From Planctomycetota bacterium (GTDB lineage: Bacteria; Planctomycetota; J058): a stretch of DNA of 64,000 bases. Made by a program: the position numbers and the translations under genes. The stretch covers positions 1 through 64,000 of the forward strand of contig JAWKSZ010000043.1 in the NCBI GenBank assembly GCA_041402045.1. Reading direction: 5' to 3'. This document shows, piece after piece, positions 4,651-34,190 of the stretch (positions within the stretch are counted from its first letter, which is position 1; every line of letters starts with the position of its first letter). The notes under the pieces were generated by a model. The model did no database searches. It was not told the DNA's origin and saw only the letters and a list, made by a program, of their open reading frames with translations.

Positions 4651-7600
4651 TCAGGGGCTCGACCGCCGCGCGCAGGGCCTGGACCTGCTCGCCCACGACC
4701 CGGGCCAGGGCCAGGTCCCCCAGGTCGACGGCCTCGACGTAACCTGAGGCGGGTTCTCCGCGAGCACGCCCAGGCGCTGGGCGAGCTCGCGCAGCGGGTC
4801 GCCCTCGCCGCCTTGGGCCTTGCCCGCGGCCTGGAGCAGCGCCTCGCGCACGCCCTCGACCTGGGTCCCCAGCGCGCTGAGCTGGCTCGTGACCCGGGTC
4901 ACGGGGTCGTCGTCGCGCCCGCCGAGCAGCCGCTGCCGGCCGAACTCCTTCTTGATCGCCGCCCAGCGCGCGGCCTGCTCGGGGGTCAGCCGCCCGCGCA
5001 GCTCGGCGAGCTTGAGCAGGTTCTGCTCGGCGCCGGTGGTCAGGGTCTGGGACTCGCCGCGGTAGTGGTCGTCGACCAGCGCCTCGAGCTCGTCGGGGGT
5101 CAGGGCCGAGGCCACCTTCTCCGCGAGCTTGTTCATGTTGCGGTAGCTGCCCTGGAGCTTGAAGGGCGGCTCCTCGCGGAACGCGTCGTCCATGCTCGCC
5201 GAGCGCACGTAGAGCCCGTTGACCTTGAGCAGCACGTCCCGCACCCGGAACAGGTGCTTCAGCACCGCGGTGATCTCGTTGAGCTCGACGCCGGAGTAGG
5301 CGTGGGTGAACTCCGTGGTCGGCACCGCCTCGCCCCGGGCCAGGCGCAGCAGCCGGGTCACGTCCTCGGGGTCGCGTCCGGCCAAGGGCGCCAGGGTCGG
5401 GTTCGAGGTCAGCGCGTTCTCGACGTAGCTCAGCGCGAACACCTGGTCCTTGCCCTCGAGCACGTCGCCCAGGTTGTAGGTGTCCGCGCGGTTGGCCAGC
5501 ATGTCCGGGATCTGGAAGGTCTCGCCGCTCTCGGTGTAGGGGTTGCCGGCCATGACCACGCAGAACTTCTTGCCGCGCAGGTCGTAGGTCCGCGTGCGCC
5601 CCTTCCACACGCCCTCGATCCGCCGCTGCCCGTCGCAGAGCGAAATGAACTTCTGCAGGAACTCCGGGTGGGTGTGCTGAATGTCGTCGAGGTAGAGCAT
5701 GACGTTGTTGCCCATCTCGAACGCCAGGTTGACCTTCTCCACCTCCTGCCGCGCCGTGGCGCTGGGCGCCTCCGCCGGGTCCAGCGAGGTCACGCTGTGG
5801 CCCAGGCTCGGACCGTTGACCTTGACGAAGGTCAGCCCCAGGCGGTTCGCCACGTACTCCATGAGCGTGGTCTTGCCGTAGCCCGGCGGCGAGACCAGGA
5901 GCAGGAGCCCCATGAGGTCGGTGCGCTTGCCCTCCCCCGCGGCGCCGATCTGCTTGGCCAGGTTCTCGCCCACGAGCGGGAGGTAGACCTCGTTCACCAG
6001 CCGGTTGCGCACGAAGGAGCTCAGCACCCGCGGGGTGAACTCCTCCAGGCGCAGGCGCTCCTTCTCGCGCTCGAGCAGCTCGCGCACGAGCACGCGGTAG
6101 GCGCGGTAGGCAGGCACCCGCCGGGTCTTGAACGCGCTCAGCCGCCCGAGGAACTCGTCCAGACGCAAGGTCAGGCTGCGGTCGTGGATCCGCGGGTGCT
6201 GCCCCAGGAGTCCAGGGACCTCCGCCTCCAGCGCGGCCGCGCTCGGCTCGTAGGGCAGCGCGCCCTGGGTCAGGATCAGGACGCTGGCCTCGTCGAACAC
6301 CCGCGCTCGCGGGTCGTCGTCGCGCTTGCCGCCGAGGAAGCCCTCGAGCCAGGCGCGGATCAGCCCCACCTGGGCGCCGAGGTCGCCGTCCAGGGCCTGG
6401 AGGTCCTCCTCCAACCCCTGGCGCTCCGGCCCCAGCGCCTGGAGGAAGGCCTCGATCAACTCCAGGGCCTCGCGGCTCTGCACGAAGGCCAGGGTCTCCT
6501 GGGCCAGCTCCTCGGCCAGGTAGCGCCCGGCCTGGGCCAGCTCCGCGGGGTCGATCTCGAAGGACTCCGCGACCTCCGCCGCGAGCTCCTGGGCCAGGGC
6601 GTCCATGGCCGGGGTCGGGCCCAGCCGCGCGGTCAGGCGCCCCAGGCTGCGCGCGCGCAGCAGCCAGCCCTCCTGCTGCTCCTCGTCGCCGTGGGCCCAG
6701 AACAGACACGCGTAGGCGCGCACCCGGGGCGGGAAACGCAGCAGCCCGGCGCCGGTGTAGAGCGCGAGCAAGCGCTCGAGGATCAGCGCCGCGTCGTGGT
6801 CGTGGATCCCGCGCTCGTAGCCCTCGTCGTAGCGATCCTGGGCGTAGCCGCGGACCACCGCGAGCAGCCCGCCCTCCTCGCGCTGGGCGTCGAGCAACCC
6901 CTGCAGGCTGCGCCCGCCGACCCCGCGCTCGGCCTCGTCCAGGATCGTGTAGGCGAGGTACTCGCCGCGGTAGACCTCCGGGGTCTCGCTCACGAGCTGC
7001 TGCTGCCAGAAGGGCTTCGTGGCCTGGAAGCCCTCGTCCTGCACCGGCTCGTAGAAGTCGGTGCCGGTCAGGTGCAGGGCCATGCCCTCGCCCCGGGGCA
7101 CGAGGGTCAGCTCCAGGGGCCGCGTGTTCACGTTGAACGCGTGCCGCCCGAGCTTGATCGTGTTCTCGCCGCCGCTGAACAGGTCGAGGCGATCGCGCAG
7201 GCCGCGCTGCGCGTCCTGCTTCGCGGTCTTCAGCGCGGCGAGGACCTCGTCGGCCTTGACGCTGTCCCCGAGCTCGCCCAGCTCCGCGCTGATCTGCTGC
7301 AGCTTGAGGACCATGGGGTCGGCGGCGAAGTAGGCGTTGAGCTCGTCCAGGGAGGGGAAGTTCTTGGCCCGCCGCCCGACCCCCGCCAGGATCCGCTCCG
7401 CGGCGCCGAACAGGTTCTGGGCCCGGCGCTGGCGCGCGTCGGTCAGGGTCTGACGCTTGGCGTCGAAGGCCTCGTAGACCTCCTCGCGCTTGGCCGCGAG
7501 GTCGGCGAGGAACTCGTCGAACTCGCTGAACCGGCTCTCGAGCTCCTCGAGCTGGAGCAGGACCCGGCTCAGCTGCTCGTCGCAGGCCTCGGGGGTGTCG

Positions 7601-9747
7601 GCCAGCGCGATCGCGCTCTGCACGTTCTGCGAGAACAAGCGGAACTGCGCGGCGAACTCGGCCTGACCCTCCGCCGAGAGCAGCTGCTTGCGCCGCCCGT
7701 CGAGGGTGGCCCGCACCCGGTTCTGCTGGGCGAAGGCCTCGCTGATCCGCTCCAGGACCTCCGTGCGCTGGGTGGGATCCTCGACCTCGAGCCCGCTCAC
7801 GACCTCGGTCAGCACGGTCAGACCCTCGGCCTTGGCCTCGAGCTCGGCGCCCAGGGGCGCGAGGTCCTTGGTCTTGGTCGTGGCCTCGATCTGCTCGAGC
7901 AGCCCGTCGAAGGCCTGCTTGATCGGCTCCAGGGCTGCCGGGCGCAGGAGGAACTCGATCGCGGCGCGGCTGATCCGCTCGAACTGCGCGACGATCTCCT
8001 GCTCCAGGGCCTCGACCCGGGCCACGTCCATGTAGCGCAGGTCCTTGAGCGTGATCGCGCGCCCGCGCTGGGTGCGCAGGCTGCGCAGGGCCTCCATGAA
8101 CGGCTCGACGCTCTGCCAGTCCTCGACGGTCAGCTCGCGCTCGACCTCGCGCTGGGCCTGGAGCGCCTCGGCCAGCGCGCGCTCGGCCTGCTGCCGCAGG
8201 ACCTGGACCTTCTCGAACTCCTCGAGGATCAGCTCGGCGTTCTTGCGCACCCCCTCGATCGGCTGCTTGAGCTCGCCGACCTCGGGGTGGTCCAGCCAGT
8301 AGTAGGCGTCGAGCGCCCGCTGCGCCGCGCGGATCAGGCCCTCGTAGACCTGCCGGTTGGGCGCCTGCTCCTCGACCGCCCGGGCCAGGCTCAGGCTGTC
8401 CGAGATCCCGCGCACGAGGTCGGCGTTGCCGACCTTCGCCAGGAACGAGCCGTCGCTCGGGGCCTGGGCCGCGTGCTCGGGGGTCATGAACGGCGTCTGC
8501 CAGATCTGCATCGGGTGCGTGCGCGTGGGTTCGTCGGAGAGCACCCGAAACACGATCATGGAGCCGTCGTCGAACAGCGTGGACCCGTGGCACTGGATCG
8601 GGGTCTGGACCTCCTTGCGAATCAGGTTGTAGGGGAACAGCACGTAGCTCCCCTCCACCCGGTGGTGGAACACGTAGAGCACGTCCTCGCCGTTGGGCGA
8701 CTTCACGCTGCGCAGGAACTCGAGGTCCTGGTGCGCGCCCTCGAACAGCTTGAACTCGCCCGACTGGAGGAAGTAGCCCCCAGGGAAGATCACCCCGTGG
8801 TCCTCGGGGAGCTGCACGCAGGTCTGCCCGATCGAGTCGACCCGGGTCACCGCCTGCGTCCGCGCGCAGTAGATCAGGTAGCGCCAGGCGACCTCGCCGT
8901 AGGGCAGGATCTTGAGCAGGATCAGGCTCCCGAGCTTGGCGTAGAGGATCTGCCCGTCGTCGAGGCCCTGGTTCGCGTCGTCGACGGGCTCGTTGTAGAT
9001 CCCCTTCCCGTCCTCCGTGTTGTCCTCGACCTTGATCGTGAGGTCGCCGCCCACGGTCTCGACGAAGACCTCGTCCAGGATCGAGACGTGGGGGTGCTGG
9101 CCCTGCACGTGGTCGTCGCGGGTCGTGGCCTTCCACTCGAAGTCGTGGCTCTTGGGGCGGGTGTGGTCGCGCTCGCCGCGGTTGTCGACGTAGCTCGGGC
9201 GCCCCTCGCCGTCGAGGGCCCAGCGAAACACCCGGATCGCCGACGGCCCCTGCCCCGTGCGGAACACCGCGAGGAGCTTGCCGTCCTTGACCCGCAACTG
9301 ATCGAGCTTCGACTCCTTGTAGTACTCGTAGAGCTCGTGGAACTCGCGCTGGAAGCTCTCGGCGTCGAACAGGCCCGGGAGCGCGCTGAAGGGCACGGGC
9401 TCCAGCGACCAGGCCCCGTCCGCGCCCCGGGTCACCTGCTGCAGGCTGAACACGTCCTCGACCCGCGTCTCGCGCTTGAGGCCGATGAACACGTTGTAGC
9501 CGAACAGCAGGTAGCCCCCGACGGTGGCGATATCCCGGGGCACGCAGTTGTTCTCGGTGCGCACCCGCTCGTTGCCGGTCACGACCAGCTCGGTGCCGCC
9601 GAAGGTCTCCTTGCGCCGCTCGTTGAGGGCCTCGGCCTTCTCGCGCACCGTACGCGCCAACCCCACGAGGCGCTCACGGATCACCTCGTAGTTGCCGGTG
9701 TCGAGGCCCTCGGCCCCTGCGCTCGTCTCGGCGGCTTCCTCGCTCAC
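4651..9747 (-). CDS. giant (about 1,700 aa) multidomain protein: N-terminal beta-rich region, long helical/coiled-coil middle, C-terminal P-loop AAA+ (MoxR/AAA_5-like) ATPase; last gene of the NfeD-flotillin operon
   Basis: Walker A LLLVSPPGYGKTTL and Walker B VMLYLDDIQ. Natural composition, unlike the two overlapping R/G/P-rich ORFs (4291..9852 +, 4325..9136 -). The 3' end probably continues to about 4437 through two frame shifts. Confidence 0.8.
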   Translation of the reverse strand: MSEEAAETSAGAEGLDTGNYEVIRERLVGLARTVREKAEALNERRKETFGGTELVVTGNERVRTENNCVPRDIATVGGYLLFGYNVFIGLKRETRVEDVFSLQQVTRGADGAWSLEPVPFSALPGLFDAESFQREFHELYEYYKESKLDQLRVKDGKLLAVFRTGQGPSAIRVFRWALDGEGRPSYVDNRGERDHTRPKSHDFEWKATTRDDHVQGQHPHVSILDEVFVETVGGDLTIKVEDNTEDGKGIYNEPVDDANQGLDDGQILYAKLGSLILLKILPYGEVAWRYLIYCARTQAVTRVDSIGQTCVQLPEDHGVIFPGGYFLQSGEFKLFEGAHQDLEFLRSVKSPNGEDVLYVFHHRVEGSYVLFPYNLIRKEVQTPIQCHGSTLFDDGSMIVFRVLSDEPTRTHPMQIWQTPFMTPEHAAQAPSDGSFLAKVGNADLVRGISDSLSLARAVEEQAPNRQVYEGLIRAAQRALDAYYWLDHPEVGELKQPIEGVRKNAELILEEFEKVQVLRQQAERALAEALQAQREVERELTVEDWQSVEPFMEALRSLRTQRGRAITLKDLRYMDVARVEALEQEIVAQFERISRAAIEFLLRPAALEPIKQAFDGLLEQIEATTKTKDLAPLGAELEAKAEGLTVLTEVVSGLEVEDPTQRTEVLERISEAFAQQNRVRATLDGRRKQLLSAEGQAEFAAQFRLFSQNVQSAIALADTPEACDEQLSRVLLQLEELESRFSEFDEFLADLAAKREEVYEAFDAKRQTLTDARQRRAQNLFGAAERILAGVGRRAKNFPSLDELNAYFAADPMVLKLQQISAELGELGDSVKADEVLAALKTAKQDAQRGLRDRLDLFSGGENTIKLGRHAFNVNTRPLELTLVPRGEGMALHLTGTDFYEPVQDEGFQATKPFWQQQLVSETPEVYRGEYLAYTILDEAERGVGGRSLQGLLDAQREEGGLLAVVRGYAQDRYDEGYERGIHDHDAALILERLLALYTGAGLLRFPPRVRAYACLFWAHGDEEQQEGWLLRARSLGRLTARLGPTPAMDALAQELAAEVAESFEIDPAELAQAGRYLAEELAQETLAFVQSREALELIEAFLQALGPERQGLEEDLQALDGDLGAQVGLIRAWLEGFLGGKRDDDPRARVFDEASVLILTQGALPYEPSAAALEAEVPGLLGQHPRIHDRSLTLRLDEFLGRLSAFKTRRVPAYRAYRVLVRELLEREKERLRLEEFTPRVLSSFVRNRLVNEVYLPLVGENLAKQIGAAGEGKRTDLMGLLLLVSPPGYGKTTLMEYVANRLGLTFVKVNGPSLGHSVTSLDPAEAPSATARQEVEKVNLAFEMGNNVMLYLDDIQHTHPEFLQKFISLCDGQRRIEGVWKGRTRTYDLRGKKFCVVMAGNPYTESGETFQIPDMLANRADTYNLGDVLEGKDQVFALSYVENALTSNPTLAPLAGRDPEDVTRLLRLARGEAVPTTEFTHAYSGVELNEITAVLKHLFRVRDVLLKVNGLYVRSASMDDAFREEPPFKLQGSYRNMNKLAEKVASALTPDELEALVDDHYRGESQTLTTGAEQNLLKLAELRGRLTPEQAARWAAIKKEFGRQRLLGGRDDDPVTRVTSQLSALGTQVEGVREALLQAAGKAQGGEGDPLRELAQRLGVLAENPPQVTSRPSTWGTWPWPGSWASRSRPCARRSSP

Positions 9748-9806
9748 GCCCTGGATCCTTCTGTCTTAGGCCTGCGCGCGCGAGTGGCCGCGCGCGCCGC
9801 TCGCCC

Positions 9807-12816: not shown

Positions 12817-12856
12817 GCCCCGCTCGCGGGCCCGAGCGTAAGGGCCATCCCCGGGG

Positions 12857-15043
12857 ATGGCAACGGCCTCCAGGGGGGTGGACTTGTTCGTCGGAGGCGC
12901 CCGGGATACTCCGAAGGAGGTGAGCTGGTCGAGGTCCGAGGTCCCCAACTCCCGCTCGCAGTCCGGCGAGCTCACGCCCTCCCGCTCGGGGAGCGCGCCG
13001 GGTCGGCGTGCCCCGCGCCTGCCTCACGACCGGTTCGAGGTGCTCAACGAGCTCGGCCGCGGCGGCATGGGCGCGGTCTACCACGCCCGGGAGCGGCACA
13101 CCGGACGCGAAGTCGCGCTCAAGGTGATCCTCGACCCCGAGCGGAACCCGCGCCGCCTGGCGCGCTTCCAGCGCGAGGCGCAGCTCGCGGCGTCACTCAC
13201 GCACCCCGGAGTCGTGGCCGTGCACTCGGCGGACCTCGAGGGCTCGCCGCCCTGGATCGCCTACGAGCTGATCAAGGGCGCGCGGACCCTGGATCAGGGG
13301 ATCAAGGTCGCCCCGCCCCGGGTGCGGGTGGGCTGGATCCTGGAGGTCGCGCGGGCGGTGGGCGCCGCCCACGAGCGCGGGATCGTGCACCGCGACCTCA
13401 AGCCGCAGAACGTGCTGATCGACGGCATGGGCCGGGCCATGGTCACCGACTTCGGGCTGGCCGCCCACGAAGAGGCCGAGCGCCTGACCCGCAGCGGGGC
13501 CCTGATCGGGACCCCCCACTACATGGCCCCCGAGCAGATCGGCGCGGACCGCGCCGGCCTCGGCCCGCACACCGACGTGTGGGCGCTGGGGGTCATGCTC
13601 TACGAGGCGATCGTGGGCGAGCGCCCGTTCAACGGCCAGACCGTGCTGGCCCTCGGCGCCCAGATCACGAGCGAGCGGGTGCCGGTCCCCTCCCAGCACG
13701 CCGACGGGGTCCCCCCCTCGTGGGACCACGTGGTGCTCAAGGCCCTGAGCCGCCCCACCGGCCAGCGCTACCGCGACGCCAGCGCCTTCGCCGACGAGCT
13801 GGAGCGCGCGCTCAGCGGCGAGCGCCTGGGCGCCTCGCGCCGGCTGCTGCGGCGCGCCGCGCTCCTGGGCGGGCTCCTGGCCGCCCTCGCGCTGTGCGCC
13901 GTCGCCGTGGACTGGGTGCGCGGGCGCGTCCGCGACCCGGCCGAGCTGGCCGCGCCGCTCCTCGAGCTGGGGAGCCTGCCCGGGGAGACGCCCCGCGACG
14001 CCCTGCTCCTGCGCGGCACCGTGAGCGACGACGTCGAGGCGCTCACGGTCGAGCTCGGCGAGCGAAGCTTCACCCTCCCGGTGCGCGGGGGCCGCTTCCA
14101 GACCGAGGTCGCCCTCGAGCTCGGCGAGAACCATCTGCGTGTGAGCGTCCCCGACGGCGAGGCGCACACCGCGACGGTGATCCGCGTGCCCCCGTGGTGG
14201 CCCGGGCTCTCTCAGCGCCAGCGCCCGCGGCTCCCGCTCCCGCCCGGGCTCAGCTTCGGCGAGGTCGAGGGCGAGTACGTGAACGCCGTCGACGGCTCGC
14301 GCCTGGTGTGGATCCCGCCGGCCGAGGACGTGTCCCTGGGCGGGCGCAGCGGCGACCAGGGGGCGACCCACTTCTTCCGCGACGAGGTCCGCCGCTCGGT
14401 CCCCGGCTTCTTCCTGGGGAAGTTCGAAGTGACCTGGGCCCAGGTGGCGACCTTCTTCGAGGCGACCCAGCAGCAGGTCGACCTGACCCGTCGGCGCACC
14501 TTCCGCTCGGTGGGCACCTCGATCGACGGCTCCCAGCGCACGCTCAAGCGCGCGATGCGGGCCGGCGACGACGAGCCCGCGGTGCGCTTGCAGCTGAGCG
14601 AGGTCCAGGGCTACCTCGAGTGGGCGGGTCTGCGCCTGCCGACCGAGGACGAGTGGGAGTTCGCGGCGCGGGGCGACGAGGGCTTCTACTACCCCTACGG
14701 CGGGGAGCTCGACGAGCGCCGGGTCAACGCCAACGGGACCCTGGACCTCCCCCCGGGGGAGGAGGGCGACCGCTACCTGATCACGGCGCCGGTGGAGACC
14801 TTGAGCGTGGGTCGCTCGCCCTTCGGCTGCTACCACATGGCGGGCAACGCTCAGGAGCTGGTGATCAGCTCGTCGGCGACCGCGGAGTCGAGCAACCAGC
14901 ACACGGTGCTGCAGAACTACGTCGGCCGCGGCGGGAGCTGGGTCAGCCAGCCGCGCTACTGCAGCGGGGTCGTGCGCTTCCCCCTGACCGACGACGTCTC
15001 CACCCAGGAGCTCGGCTTCCGGGTCGCTCGCTCTGCCGATTAG
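12857..15043 (+). CDS. Ser/Thr protein kinase fused to a C-terminal FGE-sulfatase (formylglycine-generating enzyme family) domain
   Basis: Kinase motifs GRGGMGAVY, HRDLKPQN, DFG and APE. TM segment. C-terminal RLPTEDEWEFAARG...GNAQELV...GGSW, which is FGE-like. The exact start is uncertain. Confidence 0.8.
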   Translation: MATASRGVDLFVGGARDTPKEVSWSRSEVPNSRSQSGELTPSRSGSAPGRRAPRLPHDRFEVLNELGRGGMGAVYHARERHTGREVALKVILDPERNPRRLARFQREAQLAASLTHPGVVAVHSADLEGSPPWIAYELIKGARTLDQGIKVAPPRVRVGWILEVARAVGAAHERGIVHRDLKPQNVLIDGMGRAMVTDFGLAAHEEAERLTRSGALIGTPHYMAPEQIGADRAGLGPHTDVWALGVMLYEAIVGERPFNGQTVLALGAQITSERVPVPSQHADGVPPSWDHVVLKALSRPTGQRYRDASAFADELERALSGERLGASRRLLRRAALLGGLLAALALCAVAVDWVRGRVRDPAELAAPLLELGSLPGETPRDALLLRGTVSDDVEALTVELGERSFTLPVRGGRFQTEVALELGENHLRVSVPDGEAHTATVIRVPPWWPGLSQRQRPRLPLPPGLSFGEVEGEYVNAVDGSRLVWIPPAEDVSLGGRSGDQGATHFFRDEVRRSVPGFFLGKFEVTWAQVATFFEATQQQVDLTRRRTFRSVGTSIDGSQRTLKRAMRAGDDEPAVRLQLSEVQGYLEWAGLRLPTEDEWEFAARGDEGFYYPYGGELDERRVNANGTLDLPPGEEGDRYLITAPVETLSVGRSPFGCYHMAGNAQELVISSSATAESSNQHTVLQNYVGRGGSWVSQPRYCSGVVRFPLTDDVSTQELGFRVARSAD

Positions 15044-15510
15044 CGGGCGGCGGGTTCGCGGGCGCCGAAGCGTCGGGCGAGGGCCTCCGCGCGGTAGGCG
15101 AAGATCCGCTCGAGGTCGGGGCGCACGAACCAGCGTTCGATCAGCGGGCCGCCCCAGTGGGCGTAGTCCACGCGATCCAGCACGCGCGTCGTCTCCGCGT
15201 CGAGGGCCTCGAAGGTGTGGGCGTGGCGCCAGAGGGTGTAGGGGCCCTTGATCTGCTCGTCCACGAAGAACCCGGGCGGCTCCCAGGCAGAGATCCGGGT
15301 GCGCCAGCGCAGGGGCACGCCGTGGAGCTTGATCCGGTAGTCGATCAGCGCCCCCTCCTGCATGGGGATCTCGCCCTCGGTCAGGATCTGGAACTGGAGC
15401 CAGGGCGGGGTCAACGCCTCGAGGTTCCGCGCGTCCGCGAAGAACGCGAACACGTCGTCCAGGGAGCAGGGCAGGACCTGCTCTTGCTCAAGCCGTCGGG
15501 TGCGGGGCAT
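15040..15510 (-). CDS. SRPBCC (polyketide cyclase/dehydrase, RatA-like) family protein
   Basis: 156 aa, START/Bet v1-like composition. Overlaps the upstream gene by 23 nt (operon). Confidence 0.7.
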   Translation of the reverse strand: MPRTRRLEQEQVLPCSLDDVFAFFADARNLEALTPPWLQFQILTEGEIPMQEGALIDYRIKLHGVPLRWRTRISAWEPPGFFVDEQIKGPYTLWRHAHTFEALDAETTRVLDRVDYAHWGGPLIERWFVRPDLERIFAYRAEALARRFGAREPAAR

Positions 15511-16423
15511 GGGCGCCTCCTCGCGCGCGCGGGCCGAGGAGGTCGGCGAGCGCCCCCTCCAGCCGGGTGAACTCGAACTCGAAGCCCTGGTCCAGCGCCG
15601 CCTGGGGCACGACGCGCCGGCTGGTGAGCAGCTCGGCGGAGAAGCCGCCCAGGACCAGGCGCAGGGCGGTCTCCGGGACCGGGAGCCAGGCCGGGCGCCC
15701 CAGGGCGGCCGCCAAGGTCCGGGCGAACTCCGCCTGGGTCACGGGCTCGGGCGCGGTGGCGTTCAACGGACCGGCGACCTCAGGCGTCTCCAGCGCCCAC
15801 ACGATCAAGCGCACCAGGTCGTCGGCGTGGATCCAGGACCACCACTGCCGCCCGGAGCCCAGGCGCCCGCCGAGGGCCAGGCGGTAGGGAGTCAGGAGCG
15901 CTTCGAGCGCGCCCCCACGCGGATCGAGCACGAGCCCGATCCGCAGCCGGACCTCGCGCGCGGCGTGGGCTCGTGCCTCCGCCTCCCAGGCCTGACACAC
16001 CTCCGAGAGGAAACCCTCCCCCGCCGACGCGGCCTCGTCCAGGACGGTGTCTCCGCGCTCCCCGTAGTAGCCCATGGCGCTGGCGCAGATCAGGGCCGGC
16101 GGCCGCTCGAGCGCGGCGCAGGCGCTGACCAGCGCCCGTGTGCCGAGCACCCGCGAGTCGCGGATCGCCGCGCGCTTGCTCCGGGTCCAGCGACCGACGA
16201 CGGTCTCCCCGGCGAGGTGGATCAGCGCGTCCGCGCCCTCGAGGGCGGCCGTCGGCGGGGCGCTGCGCGCGTCCCAGCGCAGCGCGTCGACCTCCCGCGG
16301 GAGCTCGCTGCGCGCGCGCTCGGGGTCCCGGGTCAGCGCGCTGACCGAGTGCCCGCGAGCGCAGAGCGCGGGCAGCAGCCGCCCACCCACGAGCCCCGTG
16401 GCCCCGCTGACGACGACCTTCAC
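15488..16423 (-). CDS. TIGR01777/YfcH-family NAD-dependent epimerase/dehydratase
   Basis: N-terminus MKVVVSGATGLVGGRLL (Rossmann fold). C-terminus GFEFEF is typical of the YfcH/DUF1731 family. Confidence 0.75.
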   Translation of the reverse strand: MKVVVSGATGLVGGRLLPALCARGHSVSALTRDPERARSELPREVDALRWDARSAPPTAALEGADALIHLAGETVVGRWTRSKRAAIRDSRVLGTRALVSACAALERPPALICASAMGYYGERGDTVLDEAASAGEGFLSEVCQAWEAEARAHAAREVRLRIGLVLDPRGGALEALLTPYRLALGGRLGSGRQWWSWIHADDLVRLIVWALETPEVAGPLNATAPEPVTQAEFARTLAAALGRPAWLPVPETALRLVLGGFSAELLTSRRVVPQAALDQGFEFEFTRLEGALADLLGPRARGGAHAPHPTA

Positions 16424-16977
16424 GCCTGCTCCCTGGCGACGCCCAGCTCGCGCGCGGCCGCGAGCAGCTCCGCCACCGAGGGGTGATCCCCCGAGCGCTG
16501 GCTCACGTAGTGGTAGCGCAGGACGCCGTCCTGGATCACGACCACCCCGCCGTTCTGCCAGGGGTCGCCCTGGGTGCGGCCCTGACGGAACCCGTCGCGC
16601 CAGGCGCCGATCGCCGAGCCGACGGAGCCGGGTCCCAGCACGCGCAGGATCCCGCGCTTGAAGCCCAGGGCCTGGTAGAGCTCGAGCCCCGGATCGACCA
16701 GGAGCCGCACGTCCGCGGGCAACTCGGCCTCGTCACGAAAGGCCTGCGCCATGGTGGGGGTGCCGCTGCCGACGAACGCCAACCGCACGCCGGCGTCGCG
16801 CAAGGTGGAGTGGTGGGCGCAGACCTGCGCCACCTGTTGGCGGCAGAACAGTCACCCGAAGTGCCGGAGGAAGACCACCAGCGCGGGGGCCTCTGCCCAC
16901 AGCTCCCGGAAGAGCACCTGGGCGCCGTCGTCGGCGGTGAGGACGCGCGCGGCTGCGTCCGCGGGAACAGGGGTCAT
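16420..16977 (-). CDS. candidate selenoprotein: AhpC/TSA (peroxiredoxin-like 2) thiol-disulfide oxidoreductase with an in-frame UGA in the motif FLRHFG-U-LFC (U-x-x-C)
   Basis: ORFs 16852..17064 and 16420..16833 are in the same frame, separated only by TGA at 16852..16854. An fdhF-like SECIS hairpin (GGUC loop) sits 18 nt downstream. Confidence 0.6.
16813..16833 (-). other. bacterial SECIS-like hairpin (GUGGCGCA-GGUC-UGCGCC(C)AC) downstream of the UGA
   Basis: The apical part matches E. coli fdhF SECIS (GCA-GGUC-UGC with a bulge). The loop is 26 nt after the UGA. Confidence 0.5.
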
Positions 16978-17134
16978 GGCGCCTCGCATTCGTCTACAGT
17001 TTGTCCAGATTCTGAAGACATGCAAGCGCCCGGGTGTTTCCTTCCGCAGAGAAAGTTCCCACATGTCCGCAGAGCAGACTACGCTAAGCGGAAGGAGCAG
17101 GAACCTGGACGTGGGCGAGCGCGGAATCTACAAA

Positions 17135-18043
17135 ATGCGCACAATCTCTGAGAGGACGGGAATCTCGCCCTCTCTGCTCCGCGCCTGGGAGCGTCGTCAC
17201 GGGTTGCTCGAGCCCGAGCGCACCGACGGCGGCCACCGCCTCTACACCGAGACCGACCTCCAGGTCCTGCAGCGGATCCGCCAACTCCTGGACCAGGGCC
17301 GCTCGATCGGAGAGCTGGCGAGCCTCGGTCGCAAGGCGCTCCTGAGCCCCAGCCTGCCGCCGCTGGCGGCGCCCAAGGCCCCGCCGCCGCGCCCCCAGCC
17401 GACCGTCGTGGAGCCAGGCCTCTCAGGCCTGCGCGACCGGATCGTCGACGCGGCGGTCGACCTCGAGGAGGCGGAGCTGCAGCGCGCGCTCGACGCCTGC
17501 TTCGCGCAGGTCGCGCCGACGACGGCCCTGGACTACGTGGTGTTCCCTGCCCTGCACGAGGTCGGCGAGCGCTGGGCGCGCGGCGAGTGCAGCGTGGCCG
17601 GCGAACACCTGATCAGCGCCAAGGTCGTGGGTCGCCTGATCAAGCTCCTGGAGGTCGCGAATCCGTCCGCGGGGCCCGACGTGCCCCGCGCGATCTGCGC
17701 CTGCCTCCCCGACGAACAGCACGTGATCGGCGCCCTGGCGGTGGCCTACCACCTGGCGCGCAGGGGCTACCACGTGCACTACCTGGGCGCGGCGATGCCG
17801 CTCCCCGACCTCGAGCGGAGCTGTCAGGTCCTGCGCCCGCGGGTCGTGGCCTTGAGCGTGGTGCGGGCGCCCCTGCTCGGGACCCACCAACCAGGCCTGA
17901 TCGCCTTCGCTGAGCGCGTGATCCCCAACGGGACGCGGGTGCTGGTGGGTGGCCCGGGGGTTCGCGGCGCAGACCCAGCGCTCCCCGCCTCCGGAATCGA
18001 GCTGCTCCAGCCCGAGGCGGACCTGACCAAGGCCTTGGCCTAG
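17135..18043 (+). CDS. MerR-family regulator with C-terminal cobalamin-binding domain (CarH/LitR-like light-responsive repressor)
   Basis: N-terminal MerR HTH (MRTISERTGISPSLLRAWERRHGLL). C-terminal B12-binding region with DEQHVIG and a Rossmann-like GxxxG. AT-richer divergent promoter region upstream. Confidence 0.7.
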   Translation: MRTISERTGISPSLLRAWERRHGLLEPERTDGGHRLYTETDLQVLQRIRQLLDQGRSIGELASLGRKALLSPSLPPLAAPKAPPPRPQPTVVEPGLSGLRDRIVDAAVDLEEAELQRALDACFAQVAPTTALDYVVFPALHEVGERWARGECSVAGEHLISAKVVGRLIKLLEVANPSAGPDVPRAICACLPDEQHVIGALAVAYHLARRGYHVHYLGAAMPLPDLERSCQVLRPRVVALSVVRAPLLGTHQPGLIAFAERVIPNGTRVLVGGPGVRGADPALPASGIELLQPEADLTKALA

Positions 18044-18232: not shown

Positions 18233-18697
18233 GTGGTCAACACCCCCCAACTGTTCAAAGACGTCCGTGTCCCCCATATCTCCGAGCGTCGTCCTGCCCC
18301 CCGCTGCGAGGCAGAGGGCTGCCAGGAGACCACCCGCAACGGCAAGCCGTTCTGCACCAACCACGTGGAGCACCTGCCCTACGTGGCCGACCTGATCGAC
18401 ACCCTCGACGCCCGCGACGCCGAGCTCGCGCGGGTGCAGCGCCGTGGCGCGCGCTGCGTCGACCCCACCGGGATCACGGCCCAGGAGATCCTGCTCCAGC
18501 TCAAGCTCTACGGCGGTCGAACCATCGCTCGGCTCTCCCGGGACCTCATGCTCGAGGAGGACGTGGTGGAGTCCTACGGACGCGCCCTGGCCAAGCTCGG
18601 CGCGGTCTCGATCGGCCGTCACCGCCGTGGCCTGCTGCTGCACCCCGAGGACCTCGGCTGCGTGCTGCGCCGTCCCTCCGCCGAGACGGCGGCCTGA
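18233..18697 (+). CDS. hypothetical protein
   Basis: GTG start preceded by GAAGGAGAG RBS. Natural composition, 154 aa. Confidence 0.55.
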   Translation: MVNTPQLFKDVRVPHISERRPAPRCEAEGCQETTRNGKPFCTNHVEHLPYVADLIDTLDARDAELARVQRRGARCVDPTGITAQEILLQLKLYGGRTIARLSRDLMLEEDVVESYGRALAKLGAVSIGRHRRGLLLHPEDLGCVLRRPSAETAA

Positions 18698-23827: not shown

Positions 23828-24260
23828 GACGCTCCTCGGGATCGGGCGGAATCCTAAAGGAGCAGAGGACGTTCGGCCACGACGCCAGACGGCAGACGCT
23901 CGCCCGGTGCAGCTCCGCGAGGTCGGCATCGGCGCGCGGGATCCCTCCGAGATCGAGGAGGTGGAGGGACGGCCCTACCGGGAGCAGCGAGCTGCTCCCC
24001 TACAGGTTTTCTGGCCAAGGGACGGCGGCTGGCTCCGCGAGGTCCAGCTCGTCGCCGGCGCGCCTGCGATCCCGGCACGCCGGCGAGCGGCGTCCGCCGC
24101 GAGCGCGCAGCGAGCGCGCAGCGATCGCCGGCGCGCCCTGCGAGCGGCGTCAGCCGCTCGCGCGCAGGCGGCCGGCGAAGCCGGCCGCGAGCCCTTGGGG
24201 TGAGGCCGAGGGGCTTTGCCCCGAGGCCGAGGGGTCTGGGACAGACCCCCTGAGGCATCA

Positions 24261-24316
24261 GTTCCTTGGGCGGCGCAAGCAGTGACTTCGTCACTGCTTG
24301 CGCCGCCCAAGGAACC
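24261..24316 (-). terminator. perfect 26-bp inverted repeat (3-nt loop) spanning the stop codon of the kinase gene; putative terminator or structured element
   Basis: gttccttgggcggcgcaagcagtgac-ttc-gtcactgcttgcgccgcccaaggaac. Confidence 0.5.
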
Positions 24317-26117
24317 GGCCCAGCAGCGCCTTGGCCTTGAGCTTGCGCTGGCCGGCGCGGAGGAAGCCGTCGAGGTCGCTCTCGAGCTGGCGCGCGCTGG
24401 CGTAGCGATCGTCCTGCGCCTTCTCCATGCAGCGCAGCACGATGTCCGCGACCTTGCGCGGGATCTGGTCGTTGAGCTTGACCGGGTCCTTGGGCGGCTG
24501 GGAGAGCACCTGCTTGATGATCTTGCGCGGGTCGCGGCCCGAGAACGGGGGCTTCCCGGTGAGCAGGAAGTAGAAGGTCGCGCCCAGGGAGTAGATGTCG
24601 CTGGTGGCGTTGATCGAGCCGTGGCCGCCGCGGGGCTGAGCCTGCTCGGGGGGCATGTAGGAGGGCGTGCCCATGATCAGGCCCTTGTCGCGGCTCTTGG
24701 CCTCTTGCTCGGCGACGAGGCCGAAGTCGATCAGCAGGCTGCGGTAGGGCTGGGCCGTGGTGTCGAGCATGATGTTCTGCGGCTTGAGGTCGCGGTGGTA
24801 GATCTTCTGCGCGTGCACGTAGCTCAGCGCCGAGGCGATCTCCTTCACGATCCGGACCGCGAACAGCGCGGGCAGCGGACCCTTGCGCTGGACCTGCTGC
24901 CGGGCCTCGAGGCCCTCGATCAGCTCCATGGAGTAGTAGGTGAGGCCGGCTTCGACGCCGGCGTCGAACATGCGCACGATGTGCGGGTGGTCGAAGCCGA
25001 TCAGCGCGCGCACCTCGTCGAGGAAGCGCTCGGTCTCGGCGTCGGACTGGTGCATCATGACCTTCAAGGCCAGGTTGCCCTCGTAGCCGCGCTGGGTGGC
25101 CATGGACTTGGCCATGCCGGTCGGCTCGACCTCGAGCACCACGCCGAAGGCGCCGCGCGCGATCTCGCGCAGGATCTGGTAGTCGCCGACCTTCAGCCCC
25201 TCGAACTTGGCGCGGGCCTTGAGCCGACGCTGGAACTCGTTGCGGTCGAGGCTCCCCCCCGGCGCCCTCCCCGGCACCAGGGTCGGCTGCGGCCGAGCCA
25301 CCTGGCGCGTGGGCGAGGTCGAGTCGTTCATGATCATGGTCGGCTGGGCGAGGATCTCCTCCTCGGAGTCGGTCAGCCCGCCGCCCTCTTCCTTCACGAT
25401 CATGGTGGGCTGCGCGAGGAGCTCGTCCTCGCTCAGCCCGCCGCCGGGGTCCTGGTCGCTCACGATCATGGTCGGCTGCGCGAACAGCTCGTCCTCGTCG
25501 AGGGCCTCCTCCTCCGCGCGCTTGGCCGCGCGCTGGGCCTGCATGGCCTCGAACTCCGCCTCGCTGAGCATGTCGTCACGGGCCGCGCTCGTGCTGGGCA
25601 CGATCAGGGTCGGCTGCGCGTAGAGGTCGTCGTCGCTGAGGTCCATGCCCCGGGTGTCGGCCACGATCATGGTCGGCTGCGCGTAGAGGTCGTCCTCGCT
25701 CGGGCCGCCGAAGTCGGGCTCGTCGTCGCTGGGCAGGTCGATCGCGGGGAGCGTCGCCGGCGGGCCGAGGGCCGCGCTGGCGTGGGGCGCGAGCTCGGGC
25801 TCGCTGTCGGGCCCCAGGCCGTCGACCTCGTCCTCCATGGGGATCACGAGGGCGTCGGCCTCTTGCTCGAGGACGCTGCTGGGGGTCGGCGCTGGCGGCG
25901 GCTGTTGGCCGCGGGCGGCGGCGGCGGCGCGGCGGAACTCGGCGATCAGCCGCTCCCAGCCGGGTCGATCGAGGAGCCCGGCGCGGACCAGGATCTGGTC
26001 GAAGGTCATGCCCGGCGCGCGCGGAGCGAGCTCCATGGCCCGCTGCAACCCCACCCGATCCACCAGCCCCAGCTTCAGCGCGAGCTGGGCGAGGAGGGTA
26101 TCGCGGGGGTTGAGCAT
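24291..26117 (-). CDS. Ser/Thr protein kinase with N-terminal acidic domain carrying 5 copies of a (D/E)(L/I)(Y/F/L)AQPTMIV repeat
   Basis: Start MLNPRDTLLAQ with GAGG RBS. Kinase motifs HRDLKPQNIML, DFGL and PPEQ. Confidence 0.8.
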   Translation of the reverse strand: MLNPRDTLLAQLALKLGLVDRVGLQRAMELAPRAPGMTFDQILVRAGLLDRPGWERLIAEFRRAAAAARGQQPPPAPTPSSVLEQEADALVIPMEDEVDGLGPDSEPELAPHASAALGPPATLPAIDLPSDDEPDFGGPSEDDLYAQPTMIVADTRGMDLSDDDLYAQPTLIVPSTSAARDDMLSEAEFEAMQAQRAAKRAEEEALDEDELFAQPTMIVSDQDPGGGLSEDELLAQPTMIVKEEGGGLTDSEEEILAQPTMIMNDSTSPTRQVARPQPTLVPGRAPGGSLDRNEFQRRLKARAKFEGLKVGDYQILREIARGAFGVVLEVEPTGMAKSMATQRGYEGNLALKVMMHQSDAETERFLDEVRALIGFDHPHIVRMFDAGVEAGLTYYSMELIEGLEARQQVQRKGPLPALFAVRIVKEIASALSYVHAQKIYHRDLKPQNIMLDTTAQPYRSLLIDFGLVAEQEAKSRDKGLIMGTPSYMPPEQAQPRGGHGSINATSDIYSLGATFYFLLTGKPPFSGRDPRKIIKQVLSQPPKDPVKLNDQIPRKVADIVLRCMEKAQDDRYASARQLESDLDGFLRAGQRKLKAKALLGRFLGRRKQ

Positions 26118-26408
26118 GAACGACCTCGAACTGCAGCATACCGCTTGCCACGGCCCGAGCGTAGTCCTGGTCTCGCGTGGTCTTACGTCCAGGCTTGGGC
26201 TACACTCGAAGCGCACGCACAGCGCGCGGAGGCGCCCCTGACCCAGCCCGAGGGTCCACCTCAGGAGCCCGCCGACGCCAGCTCGGGGCGCGGAGCGATC
26301 AGCTCCAGCGAGACGATCGAGCTGGCCGGCGCCGAGACGACGCCCCCCCGCGGGGGCGGCGACCCCAGCACCGAGACCGGATCCCTCCTGGGCGGGCTGC
26401 GCTCGGGG

Positions 26409-27833
26409 TTGAGCGACCTGCGCCAGCGGGTCAGCGGCGAGTCCGGTGACCCGCCCCCGCCCCTGACCCCGGCCGACGAGTCCCACGCGGTCCTGCCCCC
26501 GGGCACCCAGCTCGGTCGCTACACCCTCGAGGCGACCCTGGGCAAGGGCGGCATGGGCGTGGTCTACAAGGCCCACGACACCTCGCTCAACCGCCACGTC
26601 GCGCTCAAGGTCCTCTCGCAGGACCTCAGCCGCAACAGCCAGTTCACCGCGCGCTTCCGCCGCGAGGCGCAGGCCTGCGCGCAGCTCAGCCACCCGAACA
26701 TTACGCACATTTACACGATCTCCGACGACACCGACCCCTGTCAGTACTTCGTCATGGAGTTCGTCGACGGCCCGACCCTCGCCGAGCGCGTCGAGCGCGA
26801 CGGGCCGCTGCCGGTGGGCGAGATCCTCGAGATCGGGCGCCAGACGGCGCGCGGCCTGCAGGCGGCGGCGCGGCACAAGATCGTGCACCGCGATATCAAG
26901 CCTTCGAACCTCATGCTCACGAGCTCGGGGCAGGTCAAGATCACCGACTTCGGCCTGGCCAAGGCGCGCGCCGACATGGGCCACACCCTCGACCTGACCT
27001 CGACCGGGGTCGTCATGGGCACGCCCTTGTTCATGAGCCCGGAGCAGGGCCGCGGGAAGACGATCGACCACCGCTCGGACATGTACAGCCTGGGCGCGAC
27101 CTTGTTCTTCCTCGCCTACGGCTGCCCGCCGTTCGAGGCGGACTCGCCGGTGGCGATCATTCTGCGCCACATAAACGACCAGGTCGTGTTCCCCGAGACC
27201 CGCGAGGTCCCCGAGTCGTTCAAGGCGCTCCTGCGCTACCTGCTGGCCAAGGACGCCTCGCGCCGGCCCCAGGACTACGACCAGCTCCTCGAGGACATAG
27301 ACCGCGCCGAGCGCGGCGAGACCCTGGCCCAGTCGGCGACGCGGGTCGTGACCCTCTCGCCGCCGCGGAGCACCGCGCGCCGCAGCCTGTTCAAGGCCGG
27401 CAAGCTCGCGGTGGCCCGCACGAACCTCAAGCTCAAGCGCCGCGACAAGGCCGAGGCCCTGCTCGCCGAGGCGATCCAGGACGGGGACCCCAGCCTGAGG
27501 TGCGAGGCCGCGCTGCTCCTGCTCGAGCTGCGCGAATCCGCGGGGGAGCACGGCGACGTCGAGCGCCTGATCCAGATCGTGGCCGAGACCGCGCGGGACC
27601 CGGAGACCAAGGCCTTCGCCGCCTGGAAGCTGGCCGAGCTCGACCAGCGCCGCGCGATCGAGAGCCTGGTGAACGCGGTCGAGCGCCTGCAGGCGATCGA
27701 GCTCGAGCGCCCGCCGGAGCTCCCGGCCGCGCTCCTCGACGAGCAGCTCGTGCGGCTGCGCGAGCAGCTCTCTGCCCTCGAGCGCGAGCAGGGCACGGTG
27801 CGCCTGTTCCTCGGGCGCTCTCCGGGCGCGTGA
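26409..27833 (+). CDS. Ser/Thr protein kinase; N-terminal extent uncertain
   Basis: Kinase motifs GKGGMGVVYKA, HRDIKPSN and DFGLAK. First canonical start is TTG 26409, but high third-position GC in frame back to about 26215 suggests an extension. Divergent from the kinase 24291..26117. Confidence 0.65.
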   Translation: MSDLRQRVSGESGDPPPPLTPADESHAVLPPGTQLGRYTLEATLGKGGMGVVYKAHDTSLNRHVALKVLSQDLSRNSQFTARFRREAQACAQLSHPNITHIYTISDDTDPCQYFVMEFVDGPTLAERVERDGPLPVGEILEIGRQTARGLQAAARHKIVHRDIKPSNLMLTSSGQVKITDFGLAKARADMGHTLDLTSTGVVMGTPLFMSPEQGRGKTIDHRSDMYSLGATLFFLAYGCPPFEADSPVAIILRHINDQVVFPETREVPESFKALLRYLLAKDASRRPQDYDQLLEDIDRAERGETLAQSATRVVTLSPPRSTARRSLFKAGKLAVARTNLKLKRRDKAEALLAEAIQDGDPSLRCEAALLLLELRESAGEHGDVERLIQIVAETARDPETKAFAAWKLAELDQRRAIESLVNAVERLQAIELERPPELPAALLDEQLVRLREQLSALEREQGTVRLFLGRSPGA

Positions 27834-31920: not shown

Positions 31921-33771
31921 TCAGCGCGGGGTGAGGCTGTCGAGCCAGCGGGCGGTCCCCAGGGGGTCGCTGGCGAACTGGGTCTGAAACTGCTCCCACA
32001 AGGCCTCGGGGTCCTCGGTGAACCAGACCACGGACTCGGGGCCGTGGCGCACCGCGAGGATCGAGTGGGTGTCCAGGCGCTCGGGGCGCTCTGCGCGCTC
32101 GCCCGCGGCCCAGGCCAGGAGCGACGCGTGCTCGAAGTACTTGGGCACGACGACGTGCTCGATGTGGTCGAGCTGGGCGACGACGGGCTCGGAGCGCCAG
32201 AAGGGGACCTCGCAGCTGAACAGCTCGCGGAGCTCGGGGTCCGCGTCCTCGATCAGCTCGCCCAGGGCCAGGAGCGTGGCGTTGTTGCGCGTGATCCGGT
32301 CCGGATCGAGCAGCGCCTCGCCGCCGTGCTCCTGGATCGCGTCCAGGACCTCGCGGGGGGTGTGCTCGCCGTGGAGCAGGAGCGCGTAGAACGTGCGCGA
32401 GCACACGCCGAACAGCACCCGCAGCACGTTGCGGCGCACGAGGGTGCGCCGGGTCTCCTCGGGGGAGGTGTGGATCGAGTCCAAGGGGAACAGCTCGACC
32501 TCGGAGCGCCACGCCTCGCGCAGGGTGTGGCCCGGGATCGGGTCCACGTCCGCCGAGGCGCGCTCGTCGTAGCGCAGCTCGTCCTTGTGCTTGAACAGGT
32601 CCGCGCCGGGGTAGAAGCGCAGGGACGCGGTCGAGACGTCGCCGCGGATCGCGGGGTGCGCGCGCCAGCGCGCGGCGGCGAGGAGCGTCTCGTTGAGCTC
32701 CTCGTCGGTCTCCTCGGGGAAGCCAATGATGATCCCGGTGCTCGGCTTTATGTGCTGCCGCGCGGTGACCTCGACCGCCTCGTGGATCTTGGCCGGCTTG
32801 AGCTTCTTGCCCGTCCAGGCCTGGCGCTCGACGCTCAGGCTCTCGATCCCGAAGAAGATCGAGGTGCAGCCCGCGAGGAACATGGCCTCGGCCAGCTCCT
32901 CGGTCAGGTTGTCGGTGCGCGAGGTGCAGCTCCACTCCACGTCGAGGTTCCGCTCGCGGATCTCCTGGCAGAGCTCGAGCACGTAGCTCTTCTTGGCCAC
33001 CAGGTTGTCGTGCAGGAGCTCGAAGCGGTTCGTGCCCAGGTGCTCGATCCCCCAGGCGATCTCGTCCACCAGCCGCGGCGCCGACTTCACCCGGTACTTG
33101 CGCTGGAACATGTTCGTGGTCGAGCAGAAGTTGCAGTTGTAGGGGCAGCCGCGGCCGGCCTCGAGGGGGATCACCGGGTTGCAGGCCAGGTAGTCCCGGG
33201 GCTCGACCAGGTGGTAGGCCGGGAGCGGGAGCGCGTCCAGGTCCTCGATCACCCCCCCCGAGGGGTTGCGCACGACCTCGCCCCCGCGCCGCCAGGTCAG
33301 CCCGGGGATCAGCGCCAGCTTCTGCGGCGGGTCCGCGTATTCGAGGGCGCGCAGGAGCTGGGGGAAGGTGCGGTCGCCCTCGTCGCGCAGCACGTAGTCC
33401 ACGCTCGGGAACTGCTCGAGCACCTGGGTGTCGACGAAGGTCACGTGGGGGCCGCCGAGCACGATCGGCACCTGGGGGTGCTTGCGCTTGACCTCCTCCA
33501 CGAACTCCATGGTGATCCCGAAGTTGTAGGACCAGGTCGTGATCCCGATCAGGTCGATCTCTTTGCTCCGCCGCGGCAGGCGCCGGAGGAACTGGGTGCG
33601 GAACGAGCGCTGGGGGTCGAAGTCGCCGGCCTTCACGAACAGGTTCAGGTCGACGACGTGGGGCTCGTGCCCCTCGGCCTCGAGGATCGCGCCCAGGAGC
33701 AGGAGCCCCAGCGGCGGTTGGACGTCGCTCGCGATCCCCAGGTAGGGGGGCTGCACCAGATAGACCTGCAT
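31921..33771 (-). CDS. B12-binding domain-containing radical SAM protein
   Basis: N-terminal B12-binding-like region. Radical SAM cluster motif GRGCPYNCNFC. Confidence 0.8.
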   Translation of the reverse strand: MQVYLVQPPYLGIASDVQPPLGLLLLGAILEAEGHEPHVVDLNLFVKAGDFDPQRSFRTQFLRRLPRRSKEIDLIGITTWSYNFGITMEFVEEVKRKHPQVPIVLGGPHVTFVDTQVLEQFPSVDYVLRDEGDRTFPQLLRALEYADPPQKLALIPGLTWRRGGEVVRNPSGGVIEDLDALPLPAYHLVEPRDYLACNPVIPLEAGRGCPYNCNFCSTTNMFQRKYRVKSAPRLVDEIAWGIEHLGTNRFELLHDNLVAKKSYVLELCQEIRERNLDVEWSCTSRTDNLTEELAEAMFLAGCTSIFFGIESLSVERQAWTGKKLKPAKIHEAVEVTARQHIKPSTGIIIGFPEETDEELNETLLAAARWRAHPAIRGDVSTASLRFYPGADLFKHKDELRYDERASADVDPIPGHTLREAWRSEVELFPLDSIHTSPEETRRTLVRRNVLRVLFGVCSRTFYALLLHGEHTPREVLDAIQEHGGEALLDPDRITRNNATLLALGELIEDADPELRELFSCEVPFWRSEPVVAQLDHIEHVVVPKYFEHASLLAWAAGERAERPERLDTHSILAVRHGPESVVWFTEDPEALWEQFQTQFASDPLGTARWLDSLTPR

Positions 33772-33878
33772 GGGGCCGATCCTACTTCCTCGGGCCGAGG
33801 CGAGCACGCGCCCGCGGGCCCGCCCCGTGTGTCGCGCGAGCGGGCCCCGGCAACTATCCTCGGAGGCTGGAGGAGCCC

Positions 33879-34190
33879 GTGCTGGACCCGTTCTTGACCC
33901 GCGCCCTGGCCAAGAGCTCCGCGCTGCGCGCGGTGGTGGAGGGAGAGCTCGCGCGGCTCGCGGGCGAGGGCTTCCTCTCCGCCGAGGACGCCGAGGCCCT
34001 GCGCAGCGAGCACGCCGAGCGCCTGCGCGAGCTCACCGAGGGCGCGGGGGAGCAGGCGAGCGCCCTGCTCTCCGGGCTCGCGAGCGGGCTGCGCCAGGCG
34101 CTGGACCTCCCCAGCCGAGCCGAGGTCGTGGCCCTGACCGAGGAGCTGCGCCAGGCCCGGCAGCGGGCGGAGGAGGCGTCCGGCCCCTGA
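33879..34190 (+). CDS. small helical (phasin-like) ORF; possibly the N-terminus of the next gene, separated from it by a 1-nt frame change
   Basis: GTG start with GGAGGAG RBS. Ends inside a CCCC run, and the downstream frame continues with a coherent sequence. Confidence 0.45.
   Translation: MLDPFLTRALAKSSALRAVVEGELARLAGEGFLSAEDAEALRSEHAERLRELTEGAGEQASALLSGLASGLRQALDLPSRAEVVALTEELRQARQRAEEASGP

Follow-up and report, generated by a model that had tools for sequence, protein, structure and literature searches.

Among eukaryotes, SelL and SELENOU are well-established selenoproteins, and bacterial 'Prx-like' (peroxiredoxin-like) selenoproteins with a UxxC motif, in which U is selenocysteine (Sec), have been known since 2004–2005. 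Here we compare these systems with a gene on the minus strand (positions 16420..16977) of a 64,000-nucleotide stretch of DNA, hereafter the window (contig JAWKSZ010000043.1, positions 1 to 64,000), from a metagenome-assembled genome (MAG) labelled Planctomycetota. Judging from sequence comparison, we put at about 0.9 the probability that the region encodes one 185-residue selenoprotein, its in-frame UGA being read as Sec, rather than two open reading frames (ORFs). By sequence, the protein belongs to the already recognised SelL-related family (NF040769; PF13911; eukaryotic SELENOU/SelL).

In humans the SELENOU family comprises PRXL2A, PRXL2B and PRXL2C, and Sec-containing SELENOU1 genes occur in birds and fishes (PMC13134290). 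Eukaryotic SELENOU genes carry their selenocysteine insertion sequence (SECIS) in the 3′ untranslated region, whereas the window gene has a predicted bacterial SECIS within its coding region. Identity between the SELENOU/PRXL2 family and the window protein is about 25–30%. The Sec of bird and fish SELENOU1 presumably occupies the same motif position as Sec42 of the window protein. SelL of fish and invertebrates, after which NF040769 is named, has a peroxiredoxin-like fold with its redox motif at the same place; PMC2398784 describes it as 'a Prx-like protein' of both domains, and bacterial homologues are reported. SelL contains two Sec residues (UxxU) that form a diselenide, whereas the window protein has UxxC. 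Assignment to Selenoprotein L proper was rejected, the second motif position being UGC (Cys45) and not Sec. A canonical peroxiredoxin was also rejected, as RHFG-U-LFC is without the PxxxT/SxxC motif; known Sec-Prx proteins carry TxxU (PMC13188914). The prokaryotic Prx-like 1–3 proteins of Zhang and Gladyshev (Sargasso/Global Ocean Sampling) are UxxC proteins defined by PF00578, PF08534 or pfam04592. Neither PF13911 nor NF040769 appears by accession among the 119 prokaryotic selenoprotein families of a 2026 inventory, in which the closest entries are Prx-like PF00578 (UxxC/UxxU), Redoxin PF08534 (UxxC) and cd02970 (UxxS) (PMC13188914).

The best Pfam match of the window protein was PF13911 AhpC-TSA_2 (7.6e-17; 62.2 bits, gathering threshold 27). 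PF08534 Redoxin and PF00578 AhpC-TSA matched marginally, the latter with 26.7 against a threshold of 26. NF040769, 'SelL-related redox protein', was the sole NCBIfam match (profile positions 10–172 of 173, E = 3e-33), and the window protein shares its signatures RHFG-[U/C]-x-x-C-R and GDPWQxGG. No publication mentioning NF040769 was found. Human PRXL2B (prostamide/prostaglandin F synthase, PGFS; 9us9) was the best solved sequence relative (E = 8.5e-14), and the first Cys of its CxxC motif (RRFGCVVCR) aligns with the TGA of the window gene (RHFG-U-LFCR). PGFS was also the best fold match in the Protein Data Bank (PDB; Foldseek E = 2.9e-12, template modelling (TM) scores 0.72/0.81), followed by PrxQ/BCP peroxiredoxins; the PDB title of a PGFS double mutant names the Cys pair C44/C47. 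The AlphaFold2 (AF2) model (predicted local distance difference test 91.6, predicted TM score 0.89) places residue 42 between strand 32–36 and helix 44–53, in what would be the classical active-site position of a thioredoxin fold. A preliminary description of this DNA had placed the UGA at the first Cys of a thioredoxin-fold CxxC motif in a peroxiredoxin-like-2/AhpC-TSA protein, and the Cys residues of full-length homologues and of PRXL2B indeed align there.

Reading frame and conservation of the TGA

Translation of 16420–17064 on the minus strand gave a coding sequence (CDS) of 185 codons including Sec42, followed by a stop at 16422..16420. The TGA at 16854..16852 is the sole interruption of the frame (...ELWAEAPALVVFLRHFG-TGA-LFCRQQVAQVCAHH...), and the surrounding residues read ALVVFLRHFG-TGA-LFCRQQVAQVC. 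Two same-frame ORFs split by this TGA alone had been described before, with the strand unstated. Translation, Pfam, NCBIfam, the AF2 model and orthologue starts together define a complete CDS for a PRXL2/SelL-related thioredoxin-fold selenoprotein, predicted to carry Sec42 at the first position of U-x-x-C. Three codons on, the UGC at 16843..16845 (minus) encodes Cys45, the proposed resolving residue. The most likely start, from sequence, is the ATG at 16977..16975. It aligns with the starts of orthologues, and a GAGG Shine-Dalgarno-like motif lies 4 nt 5′ of it (16982..16985, minus); the orthologues have AGGAG or GAGGA at the equivalent site.

Mechanical ORF calling cuts the gene in two, giving a 41-aa ORF upstream and a 137-aa ORF from GTG 16833. 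As the preliminary description anticipated of default annotation, the GenBank record from this MAG (MEZ6187367.1, 'peroxiredoxin-like family protein') is exactly the 137-aa downstream fragment. Records of relatives are likewise truncated at the N-terminus and begin past the Sec codon (MCA8921477.1, 133 aa; MCC6216520.1, 121 aa). TGA is an ordinary stop for many genes of the window, and the code is therefore the standard one. Coding-type G+C at third codon positions flanks just two of the window's TGAs on both sides, 16854..16852 and 18695. The second (18695–18697, plus), which has the same frame on either side, was rejected as a candidate for a further selenoprotein. It lies at the junction of a 157-aa gene without a Pfam match and an SDR (short-chain dehydrogenase/reductase) gene, and is not a Sec codon because in the related locus L004 the two genes overlap and their frames differ.

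Conservation of the codon was followed in loci (L numbers) from Logan assemblies and from a scan of GTDB with one genome per species, in which the best 80 of 215 genome matches were taken. Among these best 80 species loci, 78 had TGA and two had TGC (L015, L074). They come from Myxococcota, Acidobacteriota, Binatia, Gemmatimonadota and other MAGs, the closest species-representative match being 64% identical; the source genome itself is absent from the GTDB representatives. The window sequence recurs identically in two Logan assemblies made from separate sequencing runs (L001, L002); the TGA is thus present in three independent assemblies and is no read or assembly error. Orthologues with TGA occur at 75% protein identity (L003), 63% (L004/L005) and about 40%, and include L010, L006/L007 and L008/L009. 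The preliminary description had proposed aligning orthologues at this site, and the alignment shows either a Sec (TGA) or a Cys (TGC) codon.

Full-length homologues in the databases read RHFGCLFCR, with Cys at the TGA column, and are single ORFs. A truncated length class made up 11 of 48 protein-search matches. Seven of these 11 were examined as DNA, and all seven had an in-frame TGA within a shared motif, RHFG-TGA-(L/M)(F/L)C. Among 68 distinct Sec-form sequences, the UG of the second motif codon (columns 10–11) was invariant (68/68). Within the window clade (dS, synonymous divergence, 0.6–1.2), the ratio of nonsynonymous to synonymous divergence (dN/dS) was 0.37–0.58 over the 41 codons 5′ of the TGA and 0.22–0.65 3′ of it. 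Values below 1 on either side indicate that both halves are translated and constrained. The gene thus combines an in-frame TGA opposite a conserved Cys of homologues, orthologues with TGA elsewhere, and coding conservation on both sides. Two loci also have a Cys-type paralogue 1.6–2.5 kb downstream of the Sec-type gene (L037, about position 5628; L080, about 4695), with RHFGCIFCRE... and with GDIWRMPG in place of GDPWQxGG.

The probable SECIS hairpin and its relatives

Downstream of the UGA lies a hairpin at 16812..16834 (minus), with the sequence G16834-GUGGCGCA / loop GGUC (G16825-C16822) / UGCG-(C)-CCACC-16812. Its 5′ arm covers 16834–16826, the loop 16825–16822 and the 3′ arm, with a bulged C, 16821–16812. 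The stem has 9 bp (4 bp, the single bulge on the 3′ arm, then 5 bp) and begins 17–18 nt past the UGA, in agreement with the hairpin about 18 nt downstream, with one bulge and a GGUC loop, of the preliminary description. It is the minimum free energy (MFE) structure of nt +13..+57, at −14.8 kcal/mol. The bacterial SECIS consensus has an apical loop of 3–9 nt on an upper stem of 4–16 bp, a G in loop position 1 or 2 that is usually followed by G or U, 16–37 nt between UGA and loop, and an MFE of −7.5 kcal/mol or lower (PMC13188914 Fig. 2A). The window element has a 4-nt loop on 9 bp, loop residues G-G-U-C, and 26 nt between UGA and loop (16851..16826). Its MFE lies well below −7.5 kcal/mol, a threshold that is weak in DNA of 72% G+C. 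Hairpins of at least 8 bp at the right distance follow 6% of the 1060 TGA trinucleotides of the window; with a GU-containing tetraloop also required, the target alone is left, under criteria chosen post hoc. From its sequence the hairpin is very probably a bacterial SECIS, for which SelB binding and Sec insertion are predicted.

A likeness to the SECIS of E. coli fdhF had also been claimed, and it holds for the apex. GCA-GGUC-UGC is identical in the two elements (checked on NC_000913.3), and both loops hold G and U. Beyond the apex they differ. Counted from the U of UGA, the loop begins at nt 22 in fdhF and at nt 30, 8 nt further, in the window. The unpaired base is a U of the 5′ arm in fdhF but the bulged C of the 3′ arm in the window, and the lower stems bear no relation to each other.

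The hairpin takes different forms across the family. In the window clade (L003, L004, L006, L010) nine pairs are kept and the bulge shifts, being C in the window and L003, and A one or two positions off in L004 and L010. One G-C pair becomes G-U in L006. In the NF040769 majority clade the equivalent element has a 7-bp stem and a loop of AGUU or AGGU over the same codons, against 9 bp and GGUC in the window. The majority stem occurs as GUCGCGC/GCGCGAC, GCGGUGC/GCACCGC, GUCACGC/GCGUGGC, GUGGUGC/GCACCAC and GCGACCGG/CCGGUCGC. A third register, with stem GCGAGC/GCUCGC nearer the UGA and an AGGUC-containing loop, is found in L031, L046, L086 and L090. The three registers fall within the same few codons of the family, and the downstream residues differ accordingly (QQVAQVC, EQVAQLRD and EQVRSLS). 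Four Cys-form genes were without these hairpins.

Covariation was measured on an ungapped alignment of the 68 distinct Sec-form sequences. The 7-bp helix was paired at 87.8%, compared with 77.3% in shuffles, and none of 500 shuffles reached the observed value. Double changes were seen in six of the seven helix pairs (39 cells), and pairing fell to 55% or less when the 3′ partner was slid along. Loop positions U32 (68/68) and G30 (66/68) were almost fixed. The Gln codon in the loop was CAG in 58 sequences and CAA in none, while the Gln codon 9 nt upstream, an internal control, alternated (CAG 42, CAA 19), indicating selection at the RNA level. Retention of UGA and hairpin over so many lineages would otherwise be hard to explain, and argues that these organisms decode the UGA.

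Following the general bacterial mechanism, a ribosome would meet the UGA at codon 42, and the hairpin 17–18 nt on, with its GGUC loop 26 nt past the codon, would act as the SECIS. The apical loop would recruit SelB-GTP-Sec-tRNA(Sec), so that Sec is inserted and translation continues. The expected product is an oxidoreductase of thioredoxin/peroxiredoxin fold whose U-x-x-C redox centre, made up of Sec42 and Cys45, sits at the N-terminal end of the first long helix. By CxxC/UxxC chemistry and by analogy with PRXL2B, Sec42 would be the attacking nucleophile and Cys45 would resolve it as a selenenylsulfide. PRXL2B likewise suggests a thioredoxin-type reductant that would then recycle the selenenylsulfide.

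Alternative readings of the UGA

Several observations weigh against the selenoprotein reading. No selA, selB or selD turned up when about 40 ORFs of the 64-kb window were scanned with Pfam, and ARAGORN found no tRNA there, and hence no tRNA-Sec. ARAGORN also found no tRNA-Sec in 60 related loci. With a window of only 64 kb, the missing sel genes say little either way; we infer the presence of Sec machinery in the source genome, and Sec use by the Planctomycetota lineage (the submitter's label for the MAG) would follow from the gene itself. In its 71-nt context the hairpin region is no more stable than shuffled sequence (z = 0.25), and the MFE there favours a competing fold. An equally stable or stabler downstream fold was found at 55% of the 1060 TGA trinucleotides of this 72% G+C window. 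Thermodynamics alone gives the element no support; what supports it is the shorter fold of +13..+57, together with the comparison of relatives. No Rfam family was matched, either across the whole window at gathering thresholds or at 16760–16900 with E up to 10. Because the window register differs from that of the family majority, the covariation statistics stem mainly from relatives, and the window's own clade of five sequences offers only the moving bulge and the one G-C to G-U change. Finally, the NF040769 score of the window protein (114.7 bits, U scored as C) lies just below the curated cut-off of 120, which places it at the border or periphery of the family. Scores of 121.9–146.1 bits put the nearest orthologues and the majority clade above that value (L004, 121.9; L010, 134.4; L006, 134.1).

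These observations leave three other explanations to be weighed against Sec insertion. The UGA could be read through with another amino acid, such as a near-cognate Trp or Cys, under stimulation by the hairpin. Sequence data cannot tell which amino acid enters, and the Sec machinery of the source genome is presumed, both of which leave room for this reading. Nevertheless we consider it very unlikely: the site is the nucleophilic Cys of CxxC, the sole alternative codon in relatives is TGC, giving with TGA the Cys/Sec pair that is classic for selenoproteins, the hairpin matches SelB-dependent SECIS elements in its spacing and in the G and U of its loop, and the family is curated as selenoprotein L-related.

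Termination at the UGA is slightly less probable again. The locus would then hold a split gene or two genes, with a 41-residue peptide followed by a separate 137-residue protein from GTG 16833. Gene callers do return exactly these products, the second as MEZ6187367.1, and the window shows no Sec machinery. A 137-aa protein, however, would be without strand 1 and the whole redox motif. Its GTG start lies inside the hairpin stem, with no Shine-Dalgarno-like motif just upstream (by eye). Independent gene splits would not place a stop on the catalytic-Cys column in 78 of 80 genomes, and neither the purifying selection on the 41 upstream codons nor the single-ORF Cys forms fit termination. The last explanation is a pseudogene, or a sequencing or assembly artefact of TGC or TGT; such a substitution artefact had been named as grounds for refutation in the preliminary description. 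A single base separates TGA from TGC, and MAG assemblies do have errors. In practice this explanation is refuted by three identical independent assemblies, by a TGA conserved at dS of about 1 and between MAGs at the level of phyla, and by dN/dS below 1 on both sides.

Sec recoding, as originally proposed, is thus the reading that we retain, on the strength of the TGA in 78 of 80 loci, a SECIS hairpin of consensus type and a covarying equivalent stem in relatives.

Neighbouring genes and a possible role

The selenoprotein gene is followed on the minus strand by two genes of a putative operon. The first (15488..16423) encodes an extended SDR (Epimerase and DUF1731 by Pfam) and is kept as the downstream partner in L001–L004 and L010. 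Its GTG start overlaps the selenoprotein stop as GTGA (16420–16423), which suggests translational coupling. The third gene of the operon (15040..15510, Pfam PF03364) encodes an SRPBCC/polyketide-cyclase-like protein of the hydrophobic-ligand-binding type. It is kept in L004 and L010 (63–78% identity), and also occurs near a fused form of the selenoprotein in L040. The SDR and SRPBCC genes overlap by 23 nt (15488–15510), and the compact three-gene operon is kept in L001, L004 and L010.

A CarH-type regulator is encoded divergently (17111..18043, plus; start GTG 17111 or ATG 17135), with a MerR helix-turn-helix and B12-binding domains (Pfam MerR_1, B12-binding_2, B12-binding). Its motifs RAWERRH, W-x9-EH (WARGECSVAGEH) and ExHxxG (EQHVIG) are CarH signatures (PMC9304148). 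A pattern scan found three tandem 11-bp repeats that resemble the CarH operator, in a dr-DR-dr (direct repeat) arrangement (CATGTCTTCAG AATCTGGACAA ACTGTAGACGA; 16990..17022, minus); the operator consensus is nnnnTnnACAn (PMC9304148). One perfect DR is present at the equivalent site in L003, L004 and L010. The repeats are suggestive only, as a putative CarH operator overlapping the selenoprotein promoter. The arrangement of regulator and operon is wholly conserved in L004 and L010 and suggests control of the selenoprotein operon by light or B12 through the neighbouring regulator. Homologues of the CarH-like gene (29–35% identity, E 1e-18 to 1e-31) lie less than 3 kb from distant SDR-fused members at eight loci (L027, L028, L037, L038, L047, L056, L065 and L071), so the association between regulator and selenoprotein is wider than the window clade.

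Roughly 22 of about 70 Sec-form relatives carry a C-terminal classical SDR domain fused in one ORF of 507–560 aa (L016, L021, L023, L025, L027, L029, L032, L037, L038, L040, L045, L047, L055, L056, L065, L071, L077, L078, L080, L083 and L089). In these, the TGANSGIG motif lies about 197 residues past the Sec, and NCBIfam SDR families matched in L040. The fusions provide a putative Rosetta-stone link to NAD(P)-dependent reductases. Equating the fused SDR with the downstream SDR at 15488..16423 was rejected, since only the Rossmann motif aligns (E = 0.019).

The substrate would, at a guess based on PRXL2B and on the SDR and SRPBCC neighbours, be a lipid hydroperoxide or endoperoxide. To our knowledge, prostaglandins are not expected in bacteria. 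One possible picture is a light-controlled module against photo-oxidative stress, in which a selenoprotein, SDR and SRPBCC protein repressed by CarH in the dark (with adenosylcobalamin, AdoB12) would reduce lipid hydroperoxides or endoperoxides formed by singlet oxygen. We regard this as doubtful. If true, the endoperoxide-reducing activity known from PRXL2B would have a counterpart in bacteria, and the selenoenzyme would be, as far as found, the first to be regulated by CarH; no link between CarH and a selenoenzyme was found in the literature searched, in a search that was not exhaustive.

Several large genes surround this region. Ser/Thr kinases with C-terminal formylglycine-generating enzyme (FGE)-sulfatase domains are encoded at 12842–15043 (plus) and 56634–60242 (minus), the first in synteny with the selenoprotein operon in both L004 and L010. 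Other large kinases are encoded at 24204–27833 and 37835–41548. A 1704-aa DUF3686/DUF7902/AAA ATPase (4651–9765, minus) and a B12-binding radical S-adenosylmethionine (SAM) protein (31921–34032, minus) are both seemingly unrelated to the selenoprotein.

The result is a correct and useful re-annotation of modest scientific surprise, and the window gene leaves the understanding of the Sec decoding mechanism unchanged. With 78 of the best 80 genomes in the Sec form and the records of this gene and of relatives truncated, protein databases under-represent the family and are skewed to its rarer Cys forms. One family with three SECIS registers in one coding stretch is a compact example of co-evolution between an RNA element and a protein. 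The SDR and CarH-type links offer a testable hypothesis for the function of bacterial PRXL2-type proteins. The gene itself implies a selenium-dependent redox function in this lineage and in many Myxococcota, Acidobacteriota and related MAGs.

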